15,329 nt of DNA, from IMG/VR virus record IMGVR_UViG_2531839583_000004, positions 1 to 15,329 of that record. One strand, given 5' to 3'. The notes below the pieces were generated by a model. It saw nothing but the letters and a program-made list of their open reading frames with translations, was not told where the DNA came from and ran no database searches. The translations under genes were made by a program, and so were the position numbers. Shown in pieces: positions 1 to 15,329 of this stretch; positions within the stretch are counted from its first letter, which is position 1, and each line of letters opens with the position of its first letter. Origin of the DNA: a virus (lineage: Duplodnaviria; Heunggongvirae; Uroviricota; Caudoviricetes).

Positions 1-671
1 CCGAATCACTCGGGCAACTTGCTCATCAAAACCTGTCAGCATGGATGATTGACGTCATCGGTCACGCAATAAGCGGTACGCAGGAGCGTGAATTATCTCT
101 GGCTGAATTATCCTGGTGGGCGGTCCGCAATCAGGTGGCGGACGCGCTACCGGAAGCGGTATTACGTCGTTCGCTGGGGTTGCGTGCGGAAAAAATTCGC
201 TCTGTGTACAGTGAAAGCGACATCATACCGGGAGAGCAGACCGCCACCAGCATACTGAAACAGCGCACAAAAAATCTTGCGCCGCTGCCTCACGCCCACC
301 AGCAACAGAACCCACCACAGGAAAAGACGGTGGTCAGCATTGCCGTTGATCCCGAGTCACCGGCTCAGTATCTCCAGCGCCAGAAATCACAACGGGAAGA
401 GATGCCTGTATACACGCGCTGGGTAAAAACGCAGAAATGCATGACGTGTGGCAATCAGGCAGATGATCCGCATCACATCATTGGTCATGGACTGGGAGGG
501 ATGGGAACAAAGGCTGATGATTTGTTTGTTATTCCGCTGTGCCGTAAATGCCATAGCGAACTACACGCCGGGGTAAAAGATTTTGAAGAAAAACACGGCA
601 GCCAGCTGTTGTTGCTGATTCGTTTTTTAATGCACGCGAGAAATTCGGGTGTTCTGAAGTGGAAAGCATAA
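1..671 (+). CDS. 5'-truncated phage ORF with C-terminal Cys/His HNH-like zinc-binding motif (DUF968/YdfU-like nin-region protein); the frame is open to the window edge
   Basis: Reading frame is open from position 3 through stop at 669-671 with no upstream stop. C-terminal motif CMTCGNQADDPHHIIGHGLGG...IPLCRKCHSELH resembles HNH/zinc-ribbon. Lies immediately upstream of rusA, as such ORFs do in lambdoid prophages. Confidence 0.5.
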   Translation, partial: ESLGQLAHQNLSAWMIDVIGHAISGTQERELSLAELSWWAVRNQVADALPEAVLRRSLGLRAEKIRSVYSESDIIPGEQTATSILKQRTKNLAPLPHAHQQQNPPQEKTVVSIAVDPESPAQYLQRQKSQREEMPVYTRWVKTQKCMTCGNQADDPHHIIGHGLGGMGTKADDLFVIPLCRKCHSELHAGVKDFEEKHGSQLLLLIRFLMHARNSGVLKWKA

Positions 672-1037
672 ATGACTGAACGCATAGAATTTGTTTTGCC
701 TTACCCGCCAACGGTGAACACTTACTGGCGACGTCGTGGCAGCACATATTTTGTATCAAAAGCCGGTGAGCGTTATCGCCGTGATGTGGCGCTTATTGTT
801 CGCCAGCAGCGGCTGAAATTAAACCTGTCCGGAAGGCTGGCGATAAAGATTATTGCAGAGCCACCGGATAAACGTCGTCGTGACCTGGACAATATCCTGA
901 AAGCACCACTGGATGCGCTGACGCATGCCGGACTTCTCATAGACGACGAGCAGTTTGATGAAATCAATATTGTGCGCGGTCAGCGCGTTCCTGGGGGGCG
1001 GCTGGGCGTGAAGATTTACAAAATTGAGAGTGAGTGA
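672..1037 (+). CDS. rusA: RusA-family Holliday junction resolvase
   Basis: 121 aa; conserved RusA signature PDKRRRDLDNILKAPLDAL with acidic catalytic residues; start ATG directly follows the upstream stop; typical position upstream of Q. Confidence 0.9.
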   Translation: MTERIEFVLPYPPTVNTYWRRRGSTYFVSKAGERYRRDVALIVRQQRLKLNLSGRLAIKIIAEPPDKRRRDLDNILKAPLDALTHAGLLIDDEQFDEINIVRGQRVPGGRLGVKIYKIESE

Positions 1038-1588
1038 TCGTAAATATGATATACCCGGAAATTACAGGCAAAAGCGGCGAGCATTTACGTCTAAAAACGC
1101 TGGAAGCCGTCTGGATCCAGGGGAAATTACGGATGTGGGGGCGTTGGTCGTATATAGGTGGTGGCAAACCAGGAAATATGTTCAATCAGTTGCTGGCATC
1201 CAAAAAACTGACAAAAACCGCAATCAATGAAGCCCTGCGTAGAATCAGGGAGTCAGGGATTGATAAACCAGAGCTGGAAGCATTCTTGCGAGAGATGATC
1301 GCTGGCAGACAGAAGAGCTGGTTGTCTCACTGTACTGATGCAGAGGCGTTACGCATTGATGGGGTGATAAGTAAAGCGCTTGCACGTTATCCTGGATTGA
1401 TTGATATCCTGCGGCAAAGGTACGAAGGGCGGGGGATGAGTAAACGCAAAATGGCTGAATTGTTGAATGAGGTGCACCCGGAATGGTGTTTTAGTACATG
1501 CGAAAAGCGAATTGCTAATTGGTTAGCTGTTGCTGAATATGCGCTATACATCCCTATGCGAGAATCGTTTGCTCAAAAAATGTCTTGA
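1034..1588 (+). CDS. putative late-gene antitermination protein (Q-like, non-lambda family)
   Basis: 184 aa ORF whose start overlaps the rusA stop (ATGA), suggesting translational coupling. Sits between rusA and a promoter-plus-terminator region, the canonical Q position. Possible His/Cys metal site (SHC...HPEWCFSTC). No recognisable similarity to lambda Q, so function is inferred from position. Confidence 0.5.
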   Translation: MIVNMIYPEITGKSGEHLRLKTLEAVWIQGKLRMWGRWSYIGGGKPGNMFNQLLASKKLTKTAINEALRRIRESGIDKPELEAFLREMIAGRQKSWLSHCTDAEALRIDGVISKALARYPGLIDILRQRYEGRGMSKRKMAELLNEVHPEWCFSTCEKRIANWLAVAEYALYIPMRESFAQKMS

Positions 1589-1613
1589 TTTTTTACGCAT
1601 AAACTGTTTCAAT
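1585..1613 (+). promoter_or_regulatory. candidate late promoter (pR'-like): TTGATT, 17 bp spacer, TTCAAT
   Basis: -35-like TTGATT at 1585-1590 and a weak -10-like TTCAAT at 1608-1613, immediately downstream of the Q-like gene and about 60 bp upstream of a strong terminator, mirroring the lambda pR'/tR' arrangement. Confidence 0.25.
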
Positions 1614-1671
1614 CCAGCTACGCTTCGCAAAGCTATACCGCGAGGCGAATAGCAGACATGGACACCTGAAA

Positions 1672-1697
1672 GAACCCGCTTTATGCGGGTTTTTTTG
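1672..1697 (+). terminator. rho-independent terminator (tR'-like)
   Basis: Hairpin CCCGC (1675-1679) / GCGGG (1685-1689) with loop TTTAT, followed by a run of seven T (1690-1696). Confidence 0.8.
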
Positions 1698-1819
1698 TGC
1701 CCGAAAAGCGGTACAGGACGTTAAATGCGCTGGTGGTTGCGAATGCCGGTCTTTCAGCTTGCTGGCTTTTTCGACAAGAGGTATTGGTATGTCACGTTAA
1801 CCGGAAAAGGGAAAAAGGC

Positions 1820-2017
1820 ATGCTAAAACAGCAGGATATGACCGAAACCGCCAGAGTGGTGTTTAATGAATTAAGCATCACCGAACCGGCGACCGTCGGG
1901 GAAATTGCGCAGAATACTTACCTTTCACGCGAACGCTGCCAGTTAATACTGACTCAGCTTGTTATGGCGGGTCTGGCAGATTATCAGTTCGGTTGTTACA
2001 GACGCCTTCCGCAGTGA
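1820..2017 (+). CDS. small hypothetical protein (65 aa), possible DNA-binding fold
   Basis: ATG at 1820 preceded by a purine-rich stretch (GGAAAAGGGAAAAAGGC). The track ORF 1697..2017 would start inside the terminator hairpin, so the internal start is preferred. Its own terminator follows at 2004-2026. Confidence 0.4.
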   Translation: MLKQQDMTETARVVFNELSITEPATVGEIAQNTYLSRERCQLILTQLVMAGLADYQFGCYRRLPQ

Positions 2018-2026
2018 AGGCTTTTT
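2004..2026 (+). terminator. rho-independent terminator overlapping the 3' end of the small ORF
   Basis: Stem GCCTTC (2004-2009) / GAAGGC (2016-2021) with loop CGCAGT, followed by TTTTT (2022-2026). Confidence 0.6.
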
Positions 2027-2167
2027 AATTTGTGGTAATGGGCGGCTGGGGGGTGTTAGCGGCACCTGCCAGCCATCTGCTCATGCGTTGGGGTCACAAG
2101 CAAACCTCAGGCCCATCTGCTTTGCGCAAAAGCGGTATGAGCCTATCAGAGAAGTGCTTATTGATCT

Positions 2168-3217
2168 ATGATTAATACTGTAAAAATATCCAGTTGTGAG
2201 TTAATCAACGCTGATTGCCTGGAGTTTATCCAGACCTTACCGGAAAATTCTGTCGATCTGATAGTCACAGACCCGCCATACTTTAAAGTGAAGCCCGAGG
2301 GCTGGGATAACCAGTGGGAGGGCGACGATGATTACCTGAAATGGCTGGACCAGTGTCTGGCGCAGTTCTGGCGGGTACTGAAGCCTACCGGAAGTCTTTA
2401 CCTGTTCTGTGGTCATCGCCTGGCATCTGACACCGAAATCATGATGCGTGAGCGCTTTAATGTGCTGAACCACATTATCTGGGCGAAGCCGTCCGGACGC
2501 TGGAACGGGTGCAATAAGGAAAGTCTGCGGGCGTATTTTCCGGCAACAGAGCGCATTCTGTTTGCAGAACATTATCAGGGACCGTATCGCCCGAAAGATG
2601 ATGGCTATGTGGCACAGGGGCGCGAGCTAAAACAGCACGTCATGGCCCCGCTGATTTCTTACTTTCGTGATGCGCGTAAATCACTGGGAATAACGTCAAA
2701 ACAGATAGCGGAAGCCACCGGAAAGAAAAACATGGCTTCGCACTGGTTTGGTACCAGTCAGTGGCAGTTACCGAACGAGGGGGATTACAACAAATTGCAG
2801 GCGTTGTTTGCGCGTGTTGCGGCAGAAAAACATCAGCGCGGGGAACTGGAAAAGCCACACCACCAGCTGGTCAGCACATACAGTGAGCTGAACCGGCAGT
2901 ACACGGAACTGCTGAGTGAATATAAAAATTTGCGGCGGTATTTCGGTGTGACGGCGCAGGTTCCGTACACCGATGTCTGGACGCATAAACCGGTGCAGTA
3001 CTATCCAGGAAAACATCCGTGCGAAAAACCGGCAGAAATGCTGCAGCAGATAATCAACGCGAGCAGTCGTCCGGGAGACCTGGTTGCAGATTTTTTTATG
3101 GGTTCAGGTTCAACGGTAAAAGCGGCGATGGCACTGGGGCGTTGTGCGATTGGTGTTGAGCTGGAGACAGGACGTTTTGAACAGACAGTCAGGGAAGTTC
3201 AGGATTTAATCGTTTGA
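2168..3217 (+). CDS. DNA amino-methyltransferase (N6-adenine or N4-cytosine), beta-class, orphan
   Basis: 349 aa. Motif IV DPPY (LIVTDPPYF) near the N-terminus and motif I FxGxG (DFFMGSGST) near the C-terminus give the beta-class order. A central region with an HTH-like segment (LGITSKQIAEATGK) is the likely target-recognition region. No adjacent restriction endonuclease ORF. Confidence 0.9.
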   Translation: MINTVKISSCELINADCLEFIQTLPENSVDLIVTDPPYFKVKPEGWDNQWEGDDDYLKWLDQCLAQFWRVLKPTGSLYLFCGHRLASDTEIMMRERFNVLNHIIWAKPSGRWNGCNKESLRAYFPATERILFAEHYQGPYRPKDDGYVAQGRELKQHVMAPLISYFRDARKSLGITSKQIAEATGKKNMASHWFGTSQWQLPNEGDYNKLQALFARVAAEKHQRGELEKPHHQLVSTYSELNRQYTELLSEYKNLRRYFGVTAQVPYTDVWTHKPVQYYPGKHPCEKPAEMLQQIINASSRPGDLVADFFMGSGSTVKAAMALGRCAIGVELETGRFEQTVREVQDLIV

Positions 3218-3266
3218 AACGGATGAGATTGCAGAATTAATTACGCACCATTATTATTCTGCTCCC

Positions 3267-3342
3267 GGCCCTTTAGCTCAGTGGTGAGAGCGAGCGACTC
3301 ATAATCGCCAGGTCGCTGGTTCAAATCCAGCAAGGGCCACCA
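3267..3342 (+). tRNA. tRNA with anticodon CAU (Ile2/lysidine-type or Met), including encoded CCA
   Basis: Cloverleaf: acceptor GGCCCTT/AAGGGCC, D-arm GCTC...GAGC, anticodon loop CTCATAA (anticodon CAT at 3300-3302), T-loop GGTTCAAATCC, 3' ACCA. Very close to E. coli ileX and to ileZ of Stx phages as recalled. Confidence 0.9.
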
Positions 3343-3349
3343 TCACATA

Positions 3350-3423
3350 CCGCCATTAGCTCATCGACAGAGAGTGCCAGCTTTCGAAACTGGCTGTGTG
3401 GGGCTCGGGTCCCCGATGGCAAT
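3350..3423 (+). pseudogene. degenerate tRNA-like element (possible decayed tRNA-Arg, anticodon-like TCG)
   Basis: Partial cloverleaf: acceptor CCGCCAT/ATGGCAA with two terminal mismatches, D-arm GCTC...GAGA, anticodon-like stem GCCAG/CTGGC around a 9-nt loop CTTTCGAAA (TCG central), T-arm TGGGG-CTCGGGT-CCCCG. No encoded CCA. Confidence 0.3.
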
Positions 3424-3439
3424 CCATTATCTGCATTAT

Positions 3440-3516
3440 GCGTTGTTAGCTCAGCCGGACAGAGCAATTGCCTTCTAAGCAATCGGTCACTGGTTCGAAT
3501 CCAGTACAACGCGCCA
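3440..3516 (+). tRNA. tRNA-Arg (anticodon UCU), including encoded CCA
   Basis: Acceptor GCGTTGT/ACAACGC, D-arm GCTCAGCCGGACAGAGC, anticodon loop CTTCTAA (anticodon TCT), T-loop GGTTCGAATCC, discriminator G plus CCA at 3514-3516. Resembles the argU/argO type. Confidence 0.9.
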
Positions 3517-3529
3517 CGCTTATTTTTCC

Positions 3530-3554
3530 AGGCTCGCTTTGGCGGGCCTTTTTC
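3530..3554 (+). terminator. rho-independent terminator downstream of the tRNA cluster
   Basis: Stem AGGCTCGC (3530-3537) / GCGGGCCT (3542-3549) including one G-U pair, loop TTTG, followed by TTTT (3550-3553). Confidence 0.5.
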
Positions 3555-3763
3555 ATATCCGCGCCCGTTATGAAGCGCCACCGCGTTCTGCTAATGCTGA
3601 AGCCCTTCGTCAGCTGACTGATGTTGCAGATACTGATGATACTGTGAATGTGCTGTGTCTGTGTCTGGATATCGCTGACCAGGACGGTATCGGTCAGGAA
3701 GAAGAAGCGCAACTGAAGAAAATTGCGCAGGCGCTGCAGTTGCCGCTGGAGCAGTACCTGTGA
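3539..3763 (+). pseudogene. TerB-like C-terminal fragment (probable gene remnant, 74 codons, no ATG start)
   Basis: ORF begins at TTG inside the terminator hairpin and has no in-frame ATG. The translation (VLCLCLDIADQDGIGQEEEAQLKKIAQALQLP) resembles the C-terminal half of TerB/DjlA-N-type domains as I recall them. GC-rich. Confidence 0.3.
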
Positions 3764-3912
3764 AAAGTGCGCGCCTTGTGCTGGCTGTCATCCTGTTGTT
3801 TCTGGTAGTGATGGTGGATTTCACCGGACGACTGATGTCAGTGCTGGCAGATGGTGTGCTGGTGGCGATGGCGCTGATCGTGCTCCGGCCTTTACTGCGT
3901 AAATCTGAATAA
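3760..3912 (+). CDS. small hydrophobic membrane protein (50 aa), GTG start overlapping the upstream stop
   Basis: GTG at 3760 overlaps TGA 3761-3763 (GTGA). Translation VKSARLVLAVILLFLVVMVDFTGRLMSVLADGVLVAMALIVLRPLLRKSE predicts two hydrophobic helices. Below the ORF-track size cutoff. Confidence 0.35.
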   Translation: MKSARLVLAVILLFLVVMVDFTGRLMSVLADGVLVAMALIVLRPLLRKSE

Positions 3913-4000
3913 CATCACACAAAAGGCATCTGCGGGGGCCTTTGACGGGGTGTTTTTTTACGGGTCGCTGGTGGCCCTTTTTTTATTTTCAGGAGGAAGT

Positions 4001-4390
4001 ATGTCTGAACCCTTATCCGGTTCCGGCACGGCTGCGGCGCTGGGTGGCGCGACGGTATTCGGGCTGTTTACCGGGATGGATTTCGGGATTGTGTTTGGCG
4101 CGTTCGCCGGGGCGTTATTTGTGGCAACGATGCCGCAGTCACTTTCAGTCTGGCGCGTGGTGGCGCATTTTCTGGTGTCGTTTATTGTCGGCGTGCTGGG
4201 AGCGCGTGTGCTGTCAGCCTGGATTGCATCAAAAACAGGGTATGACGGTACATCGGCAGATGCGCTGTGTGCGGTGCTGGTATCGGTGGTGTCGGTGAAG
4301 ATTCTGTCGTTCATCCACCAGCAGGATATTGCATCGTTGGTGTCCGGTGTGTTCTCCCGTCTGCGGGGTGGAGGCGGTAATGTTAAGTAA
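4001..4390 (+). CDS. putative holin (multi-pass membrane protein, 129 aa)
   Basis: Strong Shine-Dalgarno AGGAGGA 5 nt upstream of ATG 4001. Gly/Ala-rich hydrophobic segments with a charged C-terminal tail. First gene of a cassette ending in an endolysin. No similarity to lambda S recalled. Confidence 0.55.
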   Translation: MSEPLSGSGTAAALGGATVFGLFTGMDFGIVFGAFAGALFVATMPQSLSVWRVVAHFLVSFIVGVLGARVLSAWIASKTGYDGTSADALCAVLVSVVSVKILSFIHQQDIASLVSGVFSRLRGGGGNVK

Positions 4391-4655
4391 CCTTCCCGGA
4401 TTACTGAATGTGGTGTTAAGCACGGTTATCGTGCTGACGCTCTTTTTTTATCGTCGTGGTGATTCCAGACATAAACCGCTGATGTCGTGGCTGGCCTGGC
4501 TGCTGATGCTGCTGTATGCCTTTGCGCCACTTTGTTATCTGTGTGGTCGCTTTCCACCCGGTAACTGGCTGGTCGTCCTGATTAACCTGGTGTTCTGCGT
4601 GCTGGTGATACGAGCACGCGGGAACGTATCAAAAATCCTTTCATTACGGAGGTGA
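4380..4655 (+). CDS. second lysis-cassette membrane protein (holin/antiholin-like, 91 aa)
   Basis: GGAGG 5 nt upstream of ATG 4380; overlaps the holin 3' end by 11 nt; stop is 2 nt before the endolysin start. Predicted 2-3 transmembrane segments. Confidence 0.5.
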   Translation: MLSNLPGLLNVVLSTVIVLTLFFYRRGDSRHKPLMSWLAWLLMLLYAFAPLCYLCGRFPPGNWLVVLINLVFCVLVIRARGNVSKILSLRR

Positions 4656-4657
4656 GT

Positions 4658-5035
4658 ATGCCCGGTAAATTCAGATTCAGTCGTCGAAGTGAGAAAAATC
4701 TGGAGGGCGTCAAACCACAGCTGGTTGCTGTTGTTCGCCGTGCGCTGGAGCTGACGGAGGTTGACTTCGGTATTACGGAAGGCCTGCGCAGTAAGTATCG
4801 CCAGAAGCAGCTGGTCGCGGAAGGGAAAAGCCAGACCATGAACAGCCGCCACCTGACCGGTGATGCGGTGGATGTTGTGGCCTACATTGGTAGCCAGGTG
4901 TCATGGGACTGGCCTCTGTACGAGAAAATCGCGCAGGCATTTAAGCAGGCTGCCGCAGAGCTGGGAACTGCCATCGAATGGGGCGGGGACTGGAAAACAC
5001 TGAAAGACGGGCCTCACTTTCAGTTGAAGTGCTAA
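4658..5035 (+). CDS. endolysin, peptidase M15 family (L-alanyl-D-glutamate endopeptidase, T5 Lys-like)
   Basis: GGAGG 5 nt upstream of ATG 4658. Conserved Zn-ligand context SRHL...DAVD...DGPHFQL (His, Asp, His) typical of M15 phage endolysins. About 126 aa. Confidence 0.85.
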   Translation: MPGKFRFSRRSEKNLEGVKPQLVAVVRRALELTEVDFGITEGLRSKYRQKQLVAEGKSQTMNSRHLTGDAVDVVAYIGSQVSWDWPLYEKIAQAFKQAAAELGTAIEWGGDWKTLKDGPHFQLKC

Positions 5036-5049
5036 TAACCAGGTGGTTT

Positions 5050-5232
5050 ATGAGCCGAAAACACTGGACACACAGAATGCCGCGAACGGCGGCGAAATGG
5101 GCACTGGTAGCGATACTGGTGCCTTTTTTCCTGGTGGGATGCGTTAGCCTGGATAAGGTGCGCCAGCTTTTCGATACGGCCTCGCAGGTCTGCGAAATTG
5201 TCGAAAGTGCCAGGCAGTGTATGCAGAACTGA
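5050..5232 (+). CDS. small lipoprotein (lipobox LVGC); possible o-spanin-like or other lysis-associated lipoprotein
   Basis: AGGTGG upstream of ATG 5050. Signal peptide AKWALVAILVPFFLVG followed by Cys; mature peptide about 30 aa with three Cys. Immediately follows the endolysin. No Rz-like partner ORF detected. Confidence 0.5.
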   Translation: MSRKHWTHRMPRTAAKWALVAILVPFFLVGCVSLDKVRQLFDTASQVCEIVESARQCMQN

Positions 5233-5319
5233 TCGCCTGTAAGAGCAGAATATTGTTGAATCTAAATTTACTTTGAACAGTGGCCCGGATGGAAAGGGCA
5301 TCTAAATAGGAGCAGAAAA

Positions 5320-5529
5320 ATGTTAACTGTAAAAGTCATGTCTCAAAATGGTGGGGAAGAGCTCCATTGCGGGCGTAGCATTGGCTATCATCCAGAGCAG
5401 CGGAGTATTGCCGTATCGGGAAAGGATGGGAAAGTCATTCTGAAAGATGGAGATATTGCTTATGTAATGAACCAAAACGCTCAAATAATATCTGTTTATC
5501 GGCCCAATAATAGTCAGAAAAACATTTGA
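5320..5529 (+). CDS. hypothetical small protein (69 aa) in AT-rich moron
   Basis: Good Shine-Dalgarno AGGAG 6 nt upstream of ATG 5320. Low-GC codon usage distinct from flanking phage genes. Confidence 0.5.
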   Translation: MLTVKVMSQNGGEELHCGRSIGYHPEQRSIAVSGKDGKVILKDGDIAYVMNQNAQIISVYRPNNSQKNI

Positions 5530-5571
5530 ATTTCGCAAGTCCAAAGTTCAGTGGTGATCGTTATCAACTAA

Positions 5572-5600
5572 TTGAAATAACAAGCTTATGTTTGTGTAAT
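5572..5600 (+). promoter_or_regulatory. candidate sigma70 promoter (TTGAAA, 17 bp spacer, TGTAAT) for the second moron ORF
   Basis: TTGAAA at 5572-5577, 17-bp spacer, TGTAAT at 5595-5600, about 50 bp upstream of the ORF starting at 5653. Confidence 0.35.
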
Positions 5601-5652
5601 TGGTGATATAGCATGTTAATGCTGAATATCAGCGTCAACATGGAGTTATACA

Positions 5653-5868
5653 ATGGTTTTTAAACACTATTACGTGAACAAAAATGCTCAGAGCAATGGC
5701 GATCATGAGGTGCATGCTGAGGAATGTTCATATCTTCCTGCTGTAGCTAACCGCGATTACCTTGGTTACTATAGTGATTGTTCTTCGGCGGTAACAGAGG
5801 CAAAGGCCAAAGGATATTCCCGGGTGAATGGTTGCTATTGGTGTGCCAATAAGTGCCACACGTCTTAA
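5653..5868 (+). CDS. hypothetical small Cys/His-rich protein (71 aa) in AT-rich moron
   Basis: GGAG 8 nt upstream of ATG 5653. Cys/His pattern (EEC...DC...GCYWCANKCH) suggests a metal-binding mini-domain. Followed directly by a terminator. Confidence 0.5.
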   Translation: MVFKHYYVNKNAQSNGDHEVHAEECSYLPAVANRDYLGYYSDCSSAVTEAKAKGYSRVNGCYWCANKCHTS

Positions 5869-5887
5869 TCAATTGTCAATAAACCAT

Positions 5888-5911
5888 AAAGGCCGCTCTG
5901 CGGCCTTTTTC
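5888..5911 (+). terminator. rho-independent terminator closing the moron
   Basis: Stem GGCCG (5891-5895) / CGGCC (5901-5905), loop CTCTG, then TTTTT (5906-5910); an upstream A-run makes it potentially bidirectional. Confidence 0.7.
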
Positions 5912-6185
5912 ATGTTAAAAAAGATTGCGGCATTACAGCAGCCCTTCACACTGAGTGGCTGCGATAATGTGAGAAATAAAAAACCGGCAGGGGAAATCCA
6001 TTGAAGATTTGCCGGTGGCAAAAAGATGGCCATGCTTTCAACCTTAGTCGCAGGGTTACGGAGTGCAACTACGAATGCTGCCGGTATATGGCTGAATGGC
6101 GTTTCAATGATGTACGTCATCTTATCTGTAAATGTTAATGATAAAAGCTCTCATTTGTGCGGGTCCTTCCGGTGGGGTGGCCTGC

Positions 6186-6206
6186 CACGGGGCGGAAGGC
6201 GCGCGG
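6186..6206. other. cosN (cohesive-end site), variant 12-nt core GGGCGGAAGGCG
   Basis: Flanking sequence ...CACG|GGGCGG......|CGCGGGTTTTCGCTATTTATGAAAATTTTCCGG matches the lambda left end as recalled. The 12-nt core differs from lambda GGGCGGCGACCT at positions 7-10 and 12. Confidence 0.6.
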
Positions 6207-6239
6207 GTTTTCGCTATTTATGAAAATTTTCCGGGGAAA

Positions 6240-6356
6240 ATCATGTCGGTACTTCTCGAACATAACTATTTGTTTTTTCTAATATCGAATCCGTAAAAGG
6301 TCCGACATGAAAACGCCTAAAAAAGTCATTTTCGGGCACTTTCATGTCGGACCCTG
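6240..6356. promoter_or_regulatory. cosB-like region: three CATGTCGG(A/T)C repeats (R3, inverted R2, R1) around an AT-rich putative IHF-bending segment
   Basis: CATGTCGGTAC at 6242-6252 (+), TCCGACATGAAA at 6301-6312 (inverted), TTTCATGTCGGACC at 6341-6354 (+); AT-rich spacer 6254-6298. Arrangement parallels lambda R3-I1-R2-R1 but with a different repeat sequence. Confidence 0.55.
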
Positions 6357-6377
6357 TGTTTGTTGTGAGACTGTTTC

Positions 6378-6897
6378 ATGAAGGTTAATAAAAAGAAACT
6401 TGCCGAAATTTTCAACGTGGATCCGCGAACGATTGAACGCTGGCAGTCTCAGGGACTCCCTTGCGTCTCCGGAGGTGGTAAGGGCGTTGAATCTGTATTT
6501 GATACCTCCATGGCAATTCAGTGGTATGCGCAGAGGGAGGCTGATATCGAAAATGAAAAACTCCGTAAAGAGGTTGAGGATTACAGGGCTGCCAGTGAGG
6601 CAGATCTCCAGCCTGGGACTATTGAGTACGAACGCCATCGACTTACGCGTGCGCAGGCCGACGCACAGGAGCTGAAGAATGCCAGAGACTCCGCAGAAGT
6701 GGTGGAAACCGCATTCTGTACTTTCGTGCTGTCACGGATCGCAGGTGAAATTGCCAGTATTCTTGACGGGATCCCTCTCTCGGTACAGCGGCGTTTTCCG
6801 GAACTGGAAAACCGACATGTTGATTTCCTGAAACGGGATATCATCAAAGCCATGAACAAAGCAGCCGCGCTGGATGAACTGATACCGGGGTTGCTGA

Positions 6898-6923
<26 letters not shown>
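6378..6923 (+). CDS. nu1: terminase small subunit Nu1
   Basis: 181 aa. C-terminal two thirds essentially identical to lambda Nu1 as recalled; N-terminal winged-HTH region homologous but diverged. Located just downstream of cos. Confidence 0.95.
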
Positions 6924-10604
<3,681 letters not shown>

Positions 10605-10624
<20 letters not shown>

Positions 10625-11924
10625 TCTCCCGCATATTGCCAGCATGGCCTTTAATGAGCCGCTGATGCTTGAACCCGCCTATGCGCGGGTTTTCTTTTGT
10701 GCGCTTGCAGGCCAGCTTGGGATCAGCCGCCTGACGGATGCGGTGTCCGGCGACAGCCTGACTGCCCAGGAGGCACTCGTGACGCTGGCATTATCCGGTG
10801 ATGATGACGGACCACGACAGGCCCGCAGTTATCAGGTCATGAACGGCATCGCCGTGCTGCCGGTGTCCGGCACGCTGGTCAGCCGGACGCGGGCGCTGCA
10901 GCCGTACTCGGGGATGACCGGTTACAACGGCATTATCGCCCGTCTGCAACAGGCTGCCAGCGACCCGATGGTGGACGGCATTCTGCTCGATATGGACACG
11001 CCAGGCGGAATGGTGGCGGGGGCATTTGACTGCGCTGACATCATCGCCCGTGTGCGTGACATAAAACCGGTATGGGCGCTGGCCAACGACATGAACTGCA
11101 GTGCAGGTCAGCTGCTTGCCAGTGCCGCCTCCCGGCGTCTGGTCACGCAGACCGCCCGGACAGGCTCCATCGGCGTCATGATGGCTCACAGTAATTACGG
11201 TGCTGCCCTGGAGAAACAGGGTGTGGAAATCACGCTGATTTACAGCGGCAGCCATAAGGGGGATGGCAATCCCTACAGCCATCTTCCGGATGACGTCCGG
11301 GAGACACTGCAGTCCCGGATGGACGCAACCCGCCAGATGTTTGCGCAGAAGGGGTCGGCATATACCGGCCTGTCTGTGCAGGCTGTGCTGGATACCGAGG
11401 CTGCAGTGTACAGCGGTCAGGAGGCCATTGATGCCGGACTGGCTGATGAACTTGTTAACAGCACCGATGCGATCACCGTCATGCGTGATGCACTGGATGC
11501 GCGTAAATCCCGTCTCTCAGGAGGGCGAATGACCAAAGAGACTCAATCAACAACTGTTTCAGCCACTGCTTCGCAGACTGACGTTACTGACGTGGTGCCA
11601 GCGACGGAGGGCGAAAACGCCAGCGCGGCGCAGCCGGACGTGAACGCGCAGATCACCGCTGCGGTTGCGGCAGAAAACAGCCGCATTATGGGGATCCTCA
11701 ACTGTGAGGAGGCTCACGGACGCGAAGAACAGGCCCGCGTGCTGGCAGAAACCCCCGGTATGACCGTGGAAACGGCCCGCCGCATTCTGGCAGCTGCACC
11801 ACAGAGTGCACAGGCGCGCAGTGACACTGCGCTGGATCGTCTGATGCAGGGGGCACCGGCACCGCTGGCTGCAGGTAACCCGGCATCTGATGCCGTTAAC
11901 GATTTGCTGAACACACCAGTGTAA
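10605..11924 (+). CDS. C: capsid assembly protease / minor capsid protein C
   Basis: GTG start at 10605 overlapping the B 3' end by 20 nt; 439 codons; translation VTAELRNLPHIASMAFNEPLMLEP... matches lambda gpC. The track ORF start at 10458 lies inside B and is rejected. Confidence 0.93.
11319..11924 (+). CDS. nu3: scaffolding protein Nu3 (in-frame internal start within C)
   Basis: In-frame ATG at 11319 giving MDATRQMFAQKGSAYTGL..., co-terminal with C as in lambda. Confidence 0.8.
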   Translation: MDATRQMFAQKGSAYTGLSVQAVLDTEAAVYSGQEAIDAGLADELVNSTDAITVMRDALDARKSRLSGGRMTKETQSTTVSATASQTDVTDVVPATEGENASAAQPDVNAQITAAVAAENSRIMGILNCEEAHGREEQARVLAETPGMTVETARRILAAAPQSAQARSDTALDRLMQGAPAPLAAGNPASDAVNDLLNTPV

Positions 11925-11933
11925 GGGATGTTT

Positions 11934-12266
11934 ATGACGAGCAAAGAAACCTTTACCCATTACCAGCCGCTGGGCAACAGTGACCCGGCACATACGGCAA
12001 CCGCGCCCGGCGGATTGAGTGCGAAAGCGCCTGCAATGACCCCGCTGATGCTGGACCCCTCCACCCGTAAGCTGGTTGTGTGGGATGGCACCACCGACGG
12101 TGCTGCCGTTGGCATTCTGGCGGTTGCTGCTGACCAGACCAGCACCACGCTGACGTTCTACAAGTCCGGCACGTTCCGTTATGAGGATGTGCTCTGGCCG
12201 GAGGCTGCCAGCGACGAGACGAAAAAACGGACCGCGTTTGCCGGAACGGCAATCAGCATCGTTTAA
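11934..12266 (+). CDS. D: head decoration protein D
   Basis: 110 aa, [27 protein letters not shown]... matches lambda gpD; Shine-Dalgarno AAGGGA upstream of ATG 11934. Confidence 0.95.
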
Positions 12267-12286
12267 CCTTACCCTTCATCACTAAA

Positions 12287-12308
12287 GGCCGCCTGTGCGG
12301 CTTTTTTT
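12287..12308 (+). terminator. intergenic hairpin plus T-run between D and E (terminator/attenuator-like)
   Basis: Stem GCCGC (12288-12292) / GCGGC (12297-12301), loop CTGT, then TTTTTTT (12302-12308). Confidence 0.45.
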
Positions 12309-12321
12309 ACGGGATTTTTTT

Positions 12322-13347
12322 ATGTCGATGTACACAACCGCCCAGCTGCTGGCGGCAAATGAGAAGAAATTTAAGTTTGATCCGCTGTTTCTGCGTCTCT
12401 TTTTCCGTGAGAGCTATCCCTTCACCACGGAGAAAGTCTATCTCTCACAAATTCCGGGACTGGTAAACATGGCGCTGTACGTTTCGCCGATTGTTTCCGG
12501 TGAGGTTATCCGCTCCCGTGGCGGCTCCACCTCTGAATTTACACCGGGATATGTCAAGCCGAAGCATGAGGTGAATCCGCAGATGACCCTGCGTCGCCTG
12601 CCGGATGAAGATCCACAGAATCTGGCGGACCCGGCTTACCGCCGCCGTCGCATCATTCTGCAGAACATGCGAGACGAAGAGCTGGCCATTGCTCAGGTCG
12701 AAGAGATGCAGGCCGTTTCTGCCGTGCTTAAGGGCAAATATACCATGACCGGTGAAGCCTTCGATCCGGTTGAAGTGGATATGGGCCGCAGTGTGGCGAA
12801 CAACATCACGCAGTCCGGCGGTACGGAGTGGAGCAAGCGTGACAAGTCCACGTATGACCCGACCGACGATATCGAAGCCTACGCGCTGAACGCCAGCGGT
12901 GTGGTGAATATCATCGTGTTTGATCCGAAAGGCTGGGCGCTGTTCCGTTCCTTCAAAGCCGTCAGGGAGAAGCTGGATGCCCGTCGCGGCTCTCATTCCG
13001 AGCTGGAGACAGCGGTAAAAGATCTGGGCGAAGCGGTGTCCTATAAGGGGATGTATGGCGATACGGCGATCGTCGTGTATTCCGGACAGTACGTGGAAAA
13101 CGACGTCAAAAAGAACTTCCTGCCGGACAACACGATGGTGCTGGGGAACACTCAGGCACGCGGTCTGCGCACCTATGGCTGCATTCAGGATGCGGACGCA
13201 CAGCGCGAAGGTATTAACGCCTCTGCCCGCTACCCGAAAAACTGGGTGACCACCGGCGATCCGGCGCGTGAGTTCACCATGATTCAGTCAGCACCGCTGA
13301 TGCTGCTGGCTGACCCTGATGCGTTCGTGTCCGTACAACTGGCGTAA
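12322..13347 (+). CDS. E: major capsid protein E
   Basis: 341 aa, MSMYTTAQLLAANEKKFKFDPLFLRLFF... matches lambda gpE. ATG 12322 is preferred over the track start 12295, which lies inside the hairpin. Confidence 0.97.
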   Translation: MSMYTTAQLLAANEKKFKFDPLFLRLFFRESYPFTTEKVYLSQIPGLVNMALYVSPIVSGEVIRSRGGSTSEFTPGYVKPKHEVNPQMTLRRLPDEDPQNLADPAYRRRRIILQNMRDEELAIAQVEEMQAVSAVLKGKYTMTGEAFDPVEVDMGRSVANNITQSGGTEWSKRDKSTYDPTDDIEAYALNASGVVNIIVFDPKGWALFRSFKAVREKLDARRGSHSELETAVKDLGEAVSYKGMYGDTAIVVYSGQYVENDVKKNFLPDNTMVLGNTQARGLRTYGCIQDADAQREGINASARYPKNWVTTGDPAREFTMIQSAPLMLLADPDAFVSVQLA

Positions 13348-13388
13348 TCATGGCCCTTCGGGGCCATTTTCTCTCTGTGGAGGAGTCC

Positions 13389-13784
13389 ATGACGAAAGAT
13401 GAACTGATTGCCCGTCTTCAGGTGCTGGGTGAGCAACTGAACCGTGATGTCAGCCTGACGGGGACGAAAGAAGAACTGGCACTCCGTGTGGCAGAGCTGG
13501 AAGAGGAGCTTGATGACACGGATGACGCTGCTGGTCAGGACACATCTGTCAGCCCGGAAAATGCGCTGACCGGACATGAAAATGAGGTTGTATCAGCGCA
13601 GCCGGATACCGTGACTGATACGGCTGATCTGGTCACGGTTGTGGCACTGGTGACGCTGCATACTGATGCACTTCACGCCACGCGGGATGAGGCTGTGGCA
13701 TTTGTGCTGCCGGGAACGGCGTTCCGTGTCTCTGCCGGTGTGGCAGCTGAAATGACAGAGCGCGGCCTGGCCAGAATGCAATAA
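13389..13784 (+). CDS. FI: DNA packaging / head completion protein FI
   Basis: 131 aa, MTKDELIARLQVLGEQLNRDVSLTGTKEELALRVAELEEEL... matches lambda gpFI; Shine-Dalgarno GGAGGAG upstream. Confidence 0.9.
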   Translation: MTKDELIARLQVLGEQLNRDVSLTGTKEELALRVAELEEELDDTDDAAGQDTSVSPENALTGHENEVVSAQPDTVTDTADLVTVVALVTLHTDALHATRDEAVAFVLPGTAFRVSAGVAAEMTERGLARMQ

Positions 13785-13795
13785 CGGGAGGCGCT

Positions 13796-14149
13796 GTGGC
13801 TGATTTCGATAACCTGTTCGATGCTGCCATTGCCCGCGCCGATGAAACGATACGCGGGTACATGGGAACGTCAGCCACCATGACATCCGGTGAGCAGTCC
13901 GGTGCTGTGATACGTGGTGTTTTTGATGATCCTGAAAATATCAGCTATGCCGGACAGGGCGTGCGCGTTGAAGGCTCCAGCCCGTCCCTGTTTGTCCGGA
14001 CTGATGATGTGCGGCAGCTGCGGCGTGGAGACACGCTGACCATCGGTGAGGAAAACTTCTGGGTAGATCGGGTTACGCCGGATGATGGCGGAAGCTGTCA
14101 TCTCTGGCTTGGGCGGGGGGTACCGCCTGCCGTTAACCGTCGCCGCTGA
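13796..14149 (+). CDS. FII: head-tail connector protein FII
   Basis: GTG start at 13796; 117 aa; ADFDNLFDAAIARADETIRGYMGT... matches lambda gpFII. Confidence 0.9.
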   Translation: MADFDNLFDAAIARADETIRGYMGTSATMTSGEQSGAVIRGVFDDPENISYAGQGVRVEGSSPSLFVRTDDVRQLRRGDTLTIGEENFWVDRVTPDDGGSCHLWLGRGVPPAVNRRR

Positions 14150-14160
14150 AAGGGGGATGT

Positions 14161-14739
14161 ATGGCCATAAAAGGTCTTGAGCAGGCCGTTGAAAACCTCA
14201 GCCGTATCAGCAAAACGGCGGTGCCTGGTGCCGCCGCAATGGCCATTAACCGCGTTGCTTCATCCGCGATATCGCAGTCGGCGTCACAGGTTGCCCGTGA
14301 GACAAAGGTACGCCGGAAACTGGTAAAGGAAAGGGCCAGGCTGAAAAGGGCCACGGTCAAAAATCCGCAGGCCAGAATCAAAGTTAACCGGGGGGATTTG
14401 CCCGTAATCAGGCTGGGTAACGCGCGGGTTGTCCTGTCCCGACGCAGGCGTCGTAAAAAGGGGCAGCGTTCAGCCCTGAAAGGTGGCGGCAGCGTGCTTG
14501 TGGTGGGAAACCGTCGTATTCCCGGCGCGTTTATTCAGCAACTGAAAAATGGCCGCTGGCATGTCATGCAGCGTGTGGCCGGGAAAAACCGTTACCCCAT
14601 TGATGTGGTGAAAATCCCGATGGCGGTGCCGCTGACCACGGCGTTTAAACAGAATATTGAACGGATACGGCGTGAACGTCTTCCGAAAGAGCTGGGCTAT
14701 GCGCTGCAGCATCAACTGAGAATGGTAATAAAGCGATGA
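14161..14739 (+). CDS. Z: tail completion protein Z
   Basis: 192 aa, MAIKGLEQAVENLSRISKTAVPGAAAMAINRV... matches lambda gpZ; Shine-Dalgarno AGGGGGA upstream. Confidence 0.95.
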   Translation: MAIKGLEQAVENLSRISKTAVPGAAAMAINRVASSAISQSASQVARETKVRRKLVKERARLKRATVKNPQARIKVNRGDLPVIRLGNARVVLSRRRRRKKGQRSALKGGGSVLVVGNRRIPGAFIQQLKNGRWHVMQRVAGKNRYPIDVVKIPMAVPLTTAFKQNIERIRRERLPKELGYALQHQLRMVIKR

Positions 14740-15131
14740 AACATACTGAACTCCGTGCAGCCGTACTGGATGCACTGGAGAAGCATGACACCGGGGCGAC
14801 GCTTTTTGATGGTCGCCCCGCTGTTTTTGATGAGGCGGATTTTCCGGCAGTTGCCGTTTATCTCACCGGCGCTGAATACACGGGCGAAGAGCTGGACAGC
14901 GATACCTGGCAGGCGGAGCTGCATATCGAAGTTTTCCTGCCTGCTCAGGTGCCGGATTCAGAGCTGGATGCGTGGATGGAGTCCCGGATTTATCCGGTGA
15001 TGAGCGATATCCCGGCACTGTCAGATTTGATCACCAGTATGGTGGCCAGCGGCTATGACTACCGGCGCGACGATGATGCGGGCCTGTGGAGTTCAGCCGA
15101 TCTGACTTATGTCATTACCTATGAAATGTGA
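14736..15131 (+). CDS. U: tail tube terminator protein U
   Basis: 131 aa, MKHTELRAAVLDALEKHDTGATLFDGRPAVFDEADF... matches lambda gpU; ATGA overlap with the Z stop. Confidence 0.95.
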   Translation: MKHTELRAAVLDALEKHDTGATLFDGRPAVFDEADFPAVAVYLTGAEYTGEELDSDTWQAELHIEVFLPAQVPDSELDAWMESRIYPVMSDIPALSDLITSMVASGYDYRRDDDAGLWSSADLTYVITYEM

Positions 15132-15138
15132 GGACGCT

Positions 15139-15159
15139 ATGCCTGTACGGAAACATTGA
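15139..15159 (+). pseudogene. V: vestigial start of major tail gene V (ATGCCTGTAC) followed by an in-frame stop after 6 codons
   Basis: Sequence AGGACGCTATGCCTGTAC matches the lambda U-V junction and V start as recalled, then diverges; frame reads M-P-V-R-K-H-stop. Confidence 0.4.
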
Positions 15160-15329
15160 CTTTATCGAGATCTCGGCGCGCGGTCTGCCTTCTTCGCTTA
15201 CTGCTGATAATGTATCTCGTTACCTGAGTATACGCCGTTTAGGGCCAACCGGGCTAATCAATAGCATGCAAATGCGTTACGGCCTGGTTAAAGATGATGG
15301 CTTTATTGAGGTTTGGGCCTTCCAGCGTG

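Follow-up and report, generated by a model that had tools for sequence, protein, structure and literature searches.

The low-GC patch at positions 5233-5912 of the sequence analyzed here, which derives from a lambdoid prophage of Escherichia coli, is made up of two independent single-gene modules and not of one operon. The sequence, called the window in the following, comprises the 15,329 nucleotides at positions 1 to 15,329 of the IMG/VR virus record IMGVR_UViG_2531839583_000004, and the patch contains two small open reading frames (ORFs), ORF1 and ORF2. With moderate confidence, the patch can be interpreted as a composite island in the slot which follows the lysis genes and precedes cos, where a self-contained ORF2 transcription unit is accompanied by a promoterless passenger, ORF1. 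In the original prediction, made from the sequence letters, the patch had been described as a single two-gene moron; this description is not retained, because each of the two ORFs also occurs alone and because they are found together in both orders. The island is an ordinary accessory feature, in which nothing is unexpected in kind. The relevant genes all lie on the + strand, to which the features reported below are also referred.

The patch is clearly distinguished by its composition. Its GC content is 0.407, against 0.539 for the whole window, and evaluation of 680-bp segments along the window revealed that the lowest value (0.399) is that of the segment starting at 5247, with only 0.5% of the segments being as low. 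The predicted difference in GC content from the flanks was thus confirmed by a windowed calculation. The GC content at third codon positions is 0.37 for ORF1 and 0.42 for ORF2, and between 0.58 and 0.63 for the holin, endolysin and large terminase genes.

The two modules together form an accessory insertion (5241-5929), which is absent from phage phiSTEC1575-Stx2k. This phage (locus L004) provides an empty site: a homologous lipoprotein gene is kept and is followed by the sequence starting at window position 5930, so that window position 5237/5240 is joined straight to 5930 (junction ...GCAGAACTGATCACCAG|CATTACAGCAGCC...). In E. coli E500002 (L003) the slot between 5254 and 5929 is occupied by another gene, of 369 nt. 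The 689-bp segment was found in 45 of 5426 complete E. coli genomes, always with an identity of 99% or more, and its flanks in 4526 of them; in the prophages which carry the island, the flanks are 80-90% identical. Strain D217-5 (L002) is an example: the segment is about 98% identical to that of the window, the holin region 90% and the Nu1 region 80%, and its endolysin is of another family (GH108). This mosaic pattern is the one expected for recently exchanged cargo. DNA of the cassette was not found in PLSDB plasmids, nor in GenBank phages at the megablast level. The drop in GC content, the clean empty site, the alternative cargo and the presence in 45 of 5426 genomes, on diverged prophage backbones, support the view that 5241-5929 is a discrete insertion of horizontally acquired accessory DNA in the lysis-to-cos slot, as had been proposed.

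Two additional observations concern the slot itself. Its right edge (window 5930-5968) is at the same place in all prophages compared, as seen at the right junctions of L002, L003 and L004, and begins with an inverted repeat, CATTACAGCAGCCC...GGGCTGCTGTAATG, nearly perfect in the relatives, degenerate in the window and devoid of a T-run. This repeat might mark a recombination boundary or serve as a structural element before cos. In Salmonella enterica GCA_002049225.1 (L006, locus 3370-6266) the slot is much larger than in the window and contains, before Nu1, a DUF465 gene, the ORF1/ORF2 pair, a second copy of a DUF2514 (Rz-like) gene, a DUF4145 gene on the opposite strand and two further small ORFs; this locus shows that cargo accreted repeatedly at the site.

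The independence of the two modules was evident from the comparison of viral loci contained in IMG/VR contigs. Among 79 loci anchored on an ORF1 homologue, 62 contain ORF1 only, and ORF2 is located immediately upstream in the other 17. Among 79 loci anchored on ORF2, ORF1 is found upstream, in the order of the window, in 24 and downstream, in the reverse order, in 36, while 19 have none. The existence of two gene orders implies at least two independent juxtapositions. ORF1 was found in none of 80 non-enterobacterial genome loci containing an ORF2 homologue, and in enterobacterial phages it is present in 252 phage records with no ORF2 match. In addition, comparison of L184, where ORF2 precedes ORF1, with L192, where only ORF1 is present, identified a unit of about 333 bp, composed of leader, ORF2 and terminator, as a clean insertion between the stop codon of an Rz1-like gene and the segment, including a terminator and a ribosome-binding site, which precedes ORF1. 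In loci with this reversed order a terminator separates the two genes. The same ORF1/ORF2 pair is found in the same slot in Salmonella prophages.

Both ORFs show the features of genuine genes. ORF1 (5320-5529; 69 aa) is preceded by the ribosome-binding site AGGAG at 5308-5312, 8 nt upstream of the start codon, and ORF2 (5653-5868; 71 aa) by GGAG at 5642-5645, 7 nt upstream. ORF1 matches the hidden Markov model (HMM) of phrog_3909 over its full length (E 3.2e-36, residues 1-64 of 64), and ORF2 that of phrog_4298 (E 4.5e-32, residues 1-69 of 70); both families are annotated as 'unknown function', and their entries contain no functional information. Comparison with the orthologues of one of the Salmonella prophages gave, for ORF2, a ratio of nonsynonymous to synonymous substitution rates (dN/dS) of 0.12, with a dS of 1.3, and for ORF1, where synonymous sites are saturated, proportions of nonsynonymous and synonymous differences of 0.30 and 0.83, respectively. 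In both cases the ratio exceeded 1 in the +1-frame control. These values indicate that both ORFs are under purifying selection. The two small ORFs with good ribosome-binding sites, as initially described, are confirmed. ORF2 is also Cys/His-rich, as previously noted, with 5 Cys and 4 His, while ORF1 is not.

The ORF2 unit is closed by an intrinsic terminator (5888-5913), made up of a 9-bp stem with 6 GC pairs, a 3-nt loop and a T-run; the scan located it at 5888-5908, with a folding free energy of -14.3 kcal/mol. In the Salmonella copies the stem has undergone two independent compensatory changes (GGCCGC/GCGGCC, GGCCAC/GTGGCC and GGTCGC/GCGACC), and the strong terminator originally placed at 5888-5911 is thereby substantiated.

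In the region upstream of ORF2, blocks of the spacer that separates it from ORF1 are conserved between E. coli and Salmonella, although the synonymous sites of the two copies are near saturation. The architecture of this region was defined with an alignment of 32 distinct leaders, taken from enterobacterial prophages in which the identity of ORF2 to the protein of the window is only about 58-100%. One of its elements is a hairpin, GCTGA-ATA-TCAGC (5621-5633), with a 5-bp stem, followed by the Shine-Dalgarno sequence and the ATG. Its stem is formed by standard pairs in 160 of 160 cells of the alignment, and two of the five pairs covary (CG/AU/UA/UG and GC/GU/AU); none of 500 shuffles reached the observed values, and controls obtained by sliding the stem gave 15-66% pairing. 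Since the length of the loop differs among leaders, the element is better explained as a hairpin than as an operator for a dimeric protein. In 30 of the 32 leaders a TAnnnT hexamer precedes the hairpin by 12-13 nt, and at any other offset it occurs at most 4 times; in the window it corresponds to the -10-like TAGCAT (5609-5614), which, with a 17-nt spacer and the -35-like TTATGT (5586-5591), constitutes a weak promoter candidate (5586-5614). Further upstream, a CRP/FNR-type site of the form GTGA-N6-TCA (GTGATCGTTATCA, 5554-5566) is found. The strict motif is present in 32 of 35 distinct leaders, and its relaxed version, [GT]TGA-N6-[TC]CA, precedes the hairpin by 67 nt in 24 of the 32 aligned leaders and by 64-68 nt in 31. 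The strict motif is absent upstream of 75 ORF2 homologues located outside enterobacterial prophages.

With the TAnnnT hexamer as a -10 element, the transcription start would coincide with the first base of the hairpin, which would then form the 5' end of the ORF2 mRNA, and the upstream site would be centred at -59.5 or -60.5 (about -60.5 in the window). Class I CRP-dependent promoters of the lac type have their site at -61.5, and a poor -35 element is usual for activator-dependent promoters. The ORF2 leader resembles them in having a GTGA-N6-TCA site at this distance, upstream of a promoter with a poor -35; it differs in that the site is a partial match to TGTGA-N6-TCACA, with a right half more similar to that of FNR sites, and in that the start is deduced from the hexamer. 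The leader would thus combine an activator site of CRP/FNR type near -60, a weak sigma70 promoter (TTATGT-17-TAGCAT), a 5'-terminal stem-loop and a Shine-Dalgarno sequence, and ORF2 might be produced in the lysogen under catabolite (cAMP-CRP) control.

The sigma70 promoter first proposed between the two ORFs is a different one, and probably corresponds to TTGAAA-17-TGTAAT (5572-5600), the best raw pair of hexamers in the spacer, which matches 10 of 12 consensus positions. This candidate was discarded, as it has G instead of A at -11 and is not conserved in the orthologues, where the aligned hexamers are TTGAAA/CGCAAC in the Salmonella lineage L021 and GAGGTA/TATAAC in L006. What survives of the proposal is the presence, in the same spacer, of another promoter-like architecture, conserved across the 32 leaders. 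A match to the IHF consensus WATCAANNNNTTR was also observed, namely the sequence TATCAACTAATTG at 5563-5575, which overlaps the CRP/FNR-like site in its right half; this match is kept in the Salmonella orthologue L021 and not in L006.

Lambda carries bor in the same region, after the lysis genes and before cos. In structural terms, morons have been defined as added DNA with a deviant GC content and with a promoter and a terminator of their own (PMC3594210). An insertion separating genes which adjoin each other in a related phage is documented at two levels, by phiSTEC1575-Stx2k, where 5240 is joined to 5930, and by the L184/L192 pair; the insertion has a different GC content and its own terminator. 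As for the promoter, the elements described above recur in 30-32 of the 32 ORF2 leaders, the strict consensus scan returned no match, and ORF1 has no promoter. The ORF2 unit, or module B (about 5554-5913), being added DNA of deviant GC content with a promoter-like leader, the ORF and an intrinsic terminator, would therefore be a self-contained transcription unit and a moron in the strict sense, with a putative promoter and putative expression from the prophage. Similarity to the lambdoid morons HK97 gene 15 and lambda bor (PMC3594210) extends to the extra DNA between adjacent genes, the deviant GC content, the terminator and, for ORF2, the promoter-like leader. Unlike them, the island consists of two independent modules in one slot, one of which lacks a promoter; both ORFs are co-oriented with the late operon, while bor is antisense; and the products are predicted to be small cytoplasmic proteins instead of surface proteins.

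ORF1 (module A) has a different organization. In the prophage homologues an intrinsic terminator precedes ORF1 in 28 of 30 distinct upstream regions, its T-run ending 24-27 nt before the ATG. In the loci where these terminators were compared (L184-L263, L006 and L265) the stems are variable and covarying, and the sequence downstream, TTTTTATTRCCAGAAGCAGGAGAAGAAGCATG, is nearly invariant. As no room is left between terminator and ATG in the relatives, no promoter is assigned to ORF1. The conserved unit formed by terminator, 24 nt and ATG suggests that expression of ORF1 is gated by antitermination, or that the hairpin has a translational role as well. ORF1 would accordingly be transcribed only by late RNA polymerase coming from upstream and antiterminated by Q (Q-like gene at 1034-1588). 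In the window, as in the Salmonella lineage L021, only a weak stem without a T-run occupies the equivalent position: this degenerate hairpin (5282-5299), upstream of the ORF1 ribosome-binding site, appears to be a remnant of the terminator found in most relatives.

A tblastn search for ORF1 homologues provided the 252 phage records mentioned above, mostly of virulent phages of Klebsiella, Salmonella and Escherichia, with genomes of about 110 kb (T5-like) or about 140 kb. In phage AKFV33 the homologue lies among the tRNA genes of the early region; in other contigs it is tightly packed in a replication operon, among genes for a DUF2800 nuclease, an Enc34-type single-stranded-DNA-binding protein and a DNA polymerase A; the HK97-like phage Fraca has it in the post-lysis slot, directly after a terminator. 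Because it has no promoter, directly follows a terminator in the relatives and is common in virulent phages, ORF1 is probably a passenger of the late operon, with a lytic or late function. The lysogenic-conversion role suggested for the products of the patch is, for the same reasons, not supported in the case of ORF1.

The AlphaFold2 model of ORF1 has a predicted local distance difference test (pLDDT) score of 90.8 and is all-beta, with seven strands; a small beta-sandwich protein, shared with virulent T5-like phages, is thus predicted, which may act in the lytic cycle as a binder or inhibitor of a host protein. Small beta-rich phage inhibitors, such as T4 Dmd and AcrIF9, are among the closest known systems listed, together with WD40 repeats. 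In an exhaustive phmmer search, residues 16-45 of ORF1 matched multiple stretches within the WD40 repeats of nSTAND1-WD40 proteins, which are large bacterial proteins, with as many as 12 matches in a single one. Neither the Pfam WD40 model nor the predicted fold agrees with ORF1 being a WD40 repeat or a beta-propeller blade, and this assignment was rejected. Scans of ORF1 and ORF2 against Pfam, NCBIfam and PADLOC found no match for either (at E 0.1 or better for Pfam and for the defence-system models of PADLOC). Profile searches against PDB sequences gave only insignificant matches, to a sliding clamp and CFAP52 for ORF1, and to a designed repeat protein and a PsaC ferredoxin-like CxxCxxxC for ORF2. 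A literature search by peptide strings, accessions and PHROG identifiers found nothing on either protein. The comparisons proposed at the outset for the two proteins have therefore placed both in conserved families, with PHROG models and many homologues, and have provided no match that would indicate a function.

The ORF2 family extends well beyond the phage sequences represented by phrog_4298. A word-indexed search found 812 homologues; among the 120 matches listed, identities range between 57 and 75%, except for one E. coli copy at 99%, and a Pfam domain is present in none. One exact peptide pattern of ORF2 was found in at least 582 species-representative genomes. The phyla represented among the matches listed include Bacteroidota, Acidobacteriota, Gemmatimonadota, Actinomycetota, Myxococcota, Patescibacteria and Alpha- and Gammaproteobacteria; the pattern was also found in a metagenome-assembled genome of Anaerohalosphaeraceae, which we take to be a member of Planctomycetota, and in Psychrilyobacter, presumably Fusobacteriota. 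Across many phyla the relatives are 55-72% identical. An alignment of 120 sequences contains 22 invariant columns, including the potential metal ligands H21, C25, C43, C61, C64, C68 and H69 and, among others, Y6, Y7, V8, N9, Q13, N15, G16, D17, E19 and V20; the polar loop NKNAQSNGD is invariant, or nearly so. The AlphaFold2 model (pLDDT 95.2) consists of four strands and one helix. The invariant Cys and His residues make metal binding plausible. ORF2 would thus be a 71-aa cytoplasmic protein of a pan-bacterial family carried by mobile elements, binding a metal, most likely zinc, and acting by binding a conserved cellular or nucleic-acid target. Two more specific assignments were rejected. The N-terminal zinc domain of Ada (Cys4 methyl-phosphotriester repair domain, PDB 1eyf), listed among the closest known systems, found no counterpart in ORF2 at the sequence level, as no Pfam match was obtained and hhalign against Ada residues 1-94 gave a probability of 0.04. 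The HEVH motif of ORF2 (H-E-x-H) has, by inspection, the wrong spacing for an HExxH metalloprotease.

The genomic contexts of ORF2 homologues are those of mobile cargo. Two chromosomal copies adjoin IS1595 transposases, one lies between a ParA/relaxase module and an HTH-M78 pair, and another is carried by a Vibrio inovirus. In this inovirus, as in a Photobacterium prophage, in Streptococcus Javan prophages and in Staphylococcus phage 187, the homologue is opposite in orientation to its neighbours, and several homologues are followed by strong terminators. Clustering of the neighbouring genes revealed no universal partner gene. A lineage-specific synteny was found in Bacteroidota, where the homologue follows a TPR histidine kinase and a response regulator in 31 loci, mainly of Flavobacterium, Pedobacter and Chryseobacterium. 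In these loci (L025-L102), the homologue is located about 250 nt downstream of the genes for the response regulator and the TPR-containing histidine kinase, and is often followed by DUF4236, HSDR_N/PD-(D/E)XK-like, TerB-like and small Cys-rich genes; they may constitute a regulated stress or defence islet.

Several findings weigh against the interpretation of the patch as an autonomous ORF2 unit with a promoterless ORF1 passenger. A scan of 4600-6500 with the strict sigma70 consensus detected no promoter, and the -35 element is poor in all leaders. The CRP/FNR-like site of the window matches only about 7 of 10 consensus positions and one such match alone is not significant, so that the case for the site depends on its conserved position; it could also bind a different regulator. 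ORF1 of the window has no upstream terminator, and may be expressed differently from its relatives. For neither ORF is a function indicated by a match in sequence or in fold. Finally, ORF1 adjoins ORF2, in one order or the other, in 60 of the 79 ORF2-bearing viral contigs, an association which could reflect functional coupling rather than a shared hot spot.

The last point is an argument for considering ORF1 and ORF2 a functionally coupled two-gene system, such as a small defence or anti-defence system or a toxin-antidote-like pair, co-selected as a unit; the pair is also conserved between prophages of E. coli and of Salmonella, with protein identities of about 57-78%. ORF2 is, on the other hand, missing from 62 of 79 ORF1 loci, and 252 phage records contain ORF1 with no ORF2 match in enterobacterial phages. 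ORF2 also occurs by itself, in no fewer than 582 species, in contexts that are plasmid-like or flanked by insertion sequences (IS), and in phages of Gram-positive bacteria. A terminator separates the genes in the reversed order, and PADLOC recognizes neither of them. On balance, we regard a coupled pair as rather improbable.

The orientation of both ORFs, which is that of the late operon running from the lysis genes to cos, would suit ordinary AT-rich late-operon genes, with an accessory role in lysis or packaging, which would be silent until induction and give the lysogen no advantage. For ORF1 this explanation is strengthened by its occurrence in the same post-lysis position, directly after a terminator, in many prophages and in phage Fraca. 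It does not easily account for related functional phages which lack the whole segment, for the presence of ORF1 in T5-like early/tRNA regions and in replication modules, or for the non-phage contexts of ORF2, provided with a conserved leader and a terminator of its own, and was judged unlikely. The two reading frames might also be supposed to be open by chance, in an AT-rich non-coding stretch close to cos, because ORF2 has been left unannotated by RefSeq in several of the genomes examined and because neither ORF has a Pfam or NCBIfam match. This possibility is refuted by the conservation data, namely the strong PHROG matches of both ORFs, the dN/dS of ORF2 (0.12, with frame-shifted controls above 1) and the hundreds of homologues, along with the confident structural models (pLDDT 95 and 91), and deserves practically no credit.

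The composite island thus illustrates, in a clean and well-delimited case, the accumulation of independent one-gene cargo modules in the lysis-to-cos slot of lambdoid prophages, and ORF2, with its leader and terminator, constitutes a compact, putatively autonomous cassette. The ORF2 family deserves attention, as it is tiny, unusually conserved, very widespread, mobile, often unannotated in RefSeq and devoid of a functional or structural assignment and of relatives with a solved structure. A more ambitious proposal, which we consider speculative and quite doubtful, is that ORF2 represents an undescribed pan-bacterial family of metal-binding proteins of about 68 aa, with a fold lacking a solved relative and a near-invariant polar loop, spread by phages, plasmids and IS-flanked islands as a self-regulated one-gene cassette; switched on by cAMP-CRP in the lysogen, in the case of enterobacterial prophages, and directed against a universally conserved target, it would form a new class of conversion or anti-defence factors, possibly together with ORF1. 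If CRP-type control and metal binding hold true, the cassette would offer an easy experimental entry to a large family of mobile-element proteins.

The low-GC region is located inside the late operon, with the lysis genes on one side and cos on the other, in agreement with the initial placement between lysis cassette and cos. Upstream, the gene order is DUF968 (NinG-like), RusA, the Q-like antiterminator, a DNA methylase and two tRNA genes, followed by two holins, an M15 endolysin (4652-5035), a small lipoprotein ORF (5077-5232) and the low-GC region itself. Downstream are cos, with the match to the phage 21 cos segment starting at about 6190, Nu1 (6378-6923), the large terminase, gpW and the portal. 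The segment 4300-6900 is 99.5-99.9% identical to chromosomal DNA of the enterotoxigenic E. coli strains 510016, ATCC 43896, E66 and 504838, and 98.5% identical to E24377A.

Some features of the neighbouring regions were also recorded. The lipoprotein ORF at 5077-5232 (longest ORF 4978-5232), for which RefSeq reports a hypothetical protein of 51 aa, contains a signal of lipoprotein type (…LVGC) and gives a match to phrog_7528, a family of 'unknown function'; since no Rz/Rz1-type spanin pair is evident in the lysis cassette of the window, it might be a spanin component. A second cargo-rich slot is found between the Q-like gene and the holins (2168-3516), where the DNA methylase gene (N6_N4_Mtase) is accompanied by the two tRNA genes, for Met-CAT (3267-3342) and Arg-TCT (3440-3516). 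Strain 510016 differs in this slot, RefSeq reporting tRNA-Ile, tRNA-Thr and tRNA-Gly upstream of the holins. An Rfam scan of 5000-6450 gave no match near the gathering score. Between cos and the start of Nu1, a long, near-perfect palindrome at 6293-6357 (GGTCCGACATGAAA...TTTCATGTCGGACC) produced weak, spurious miRNA-type Rfam matches and inverted self-matches in BLAST, and may be part of the cosB/terminase-binding region.

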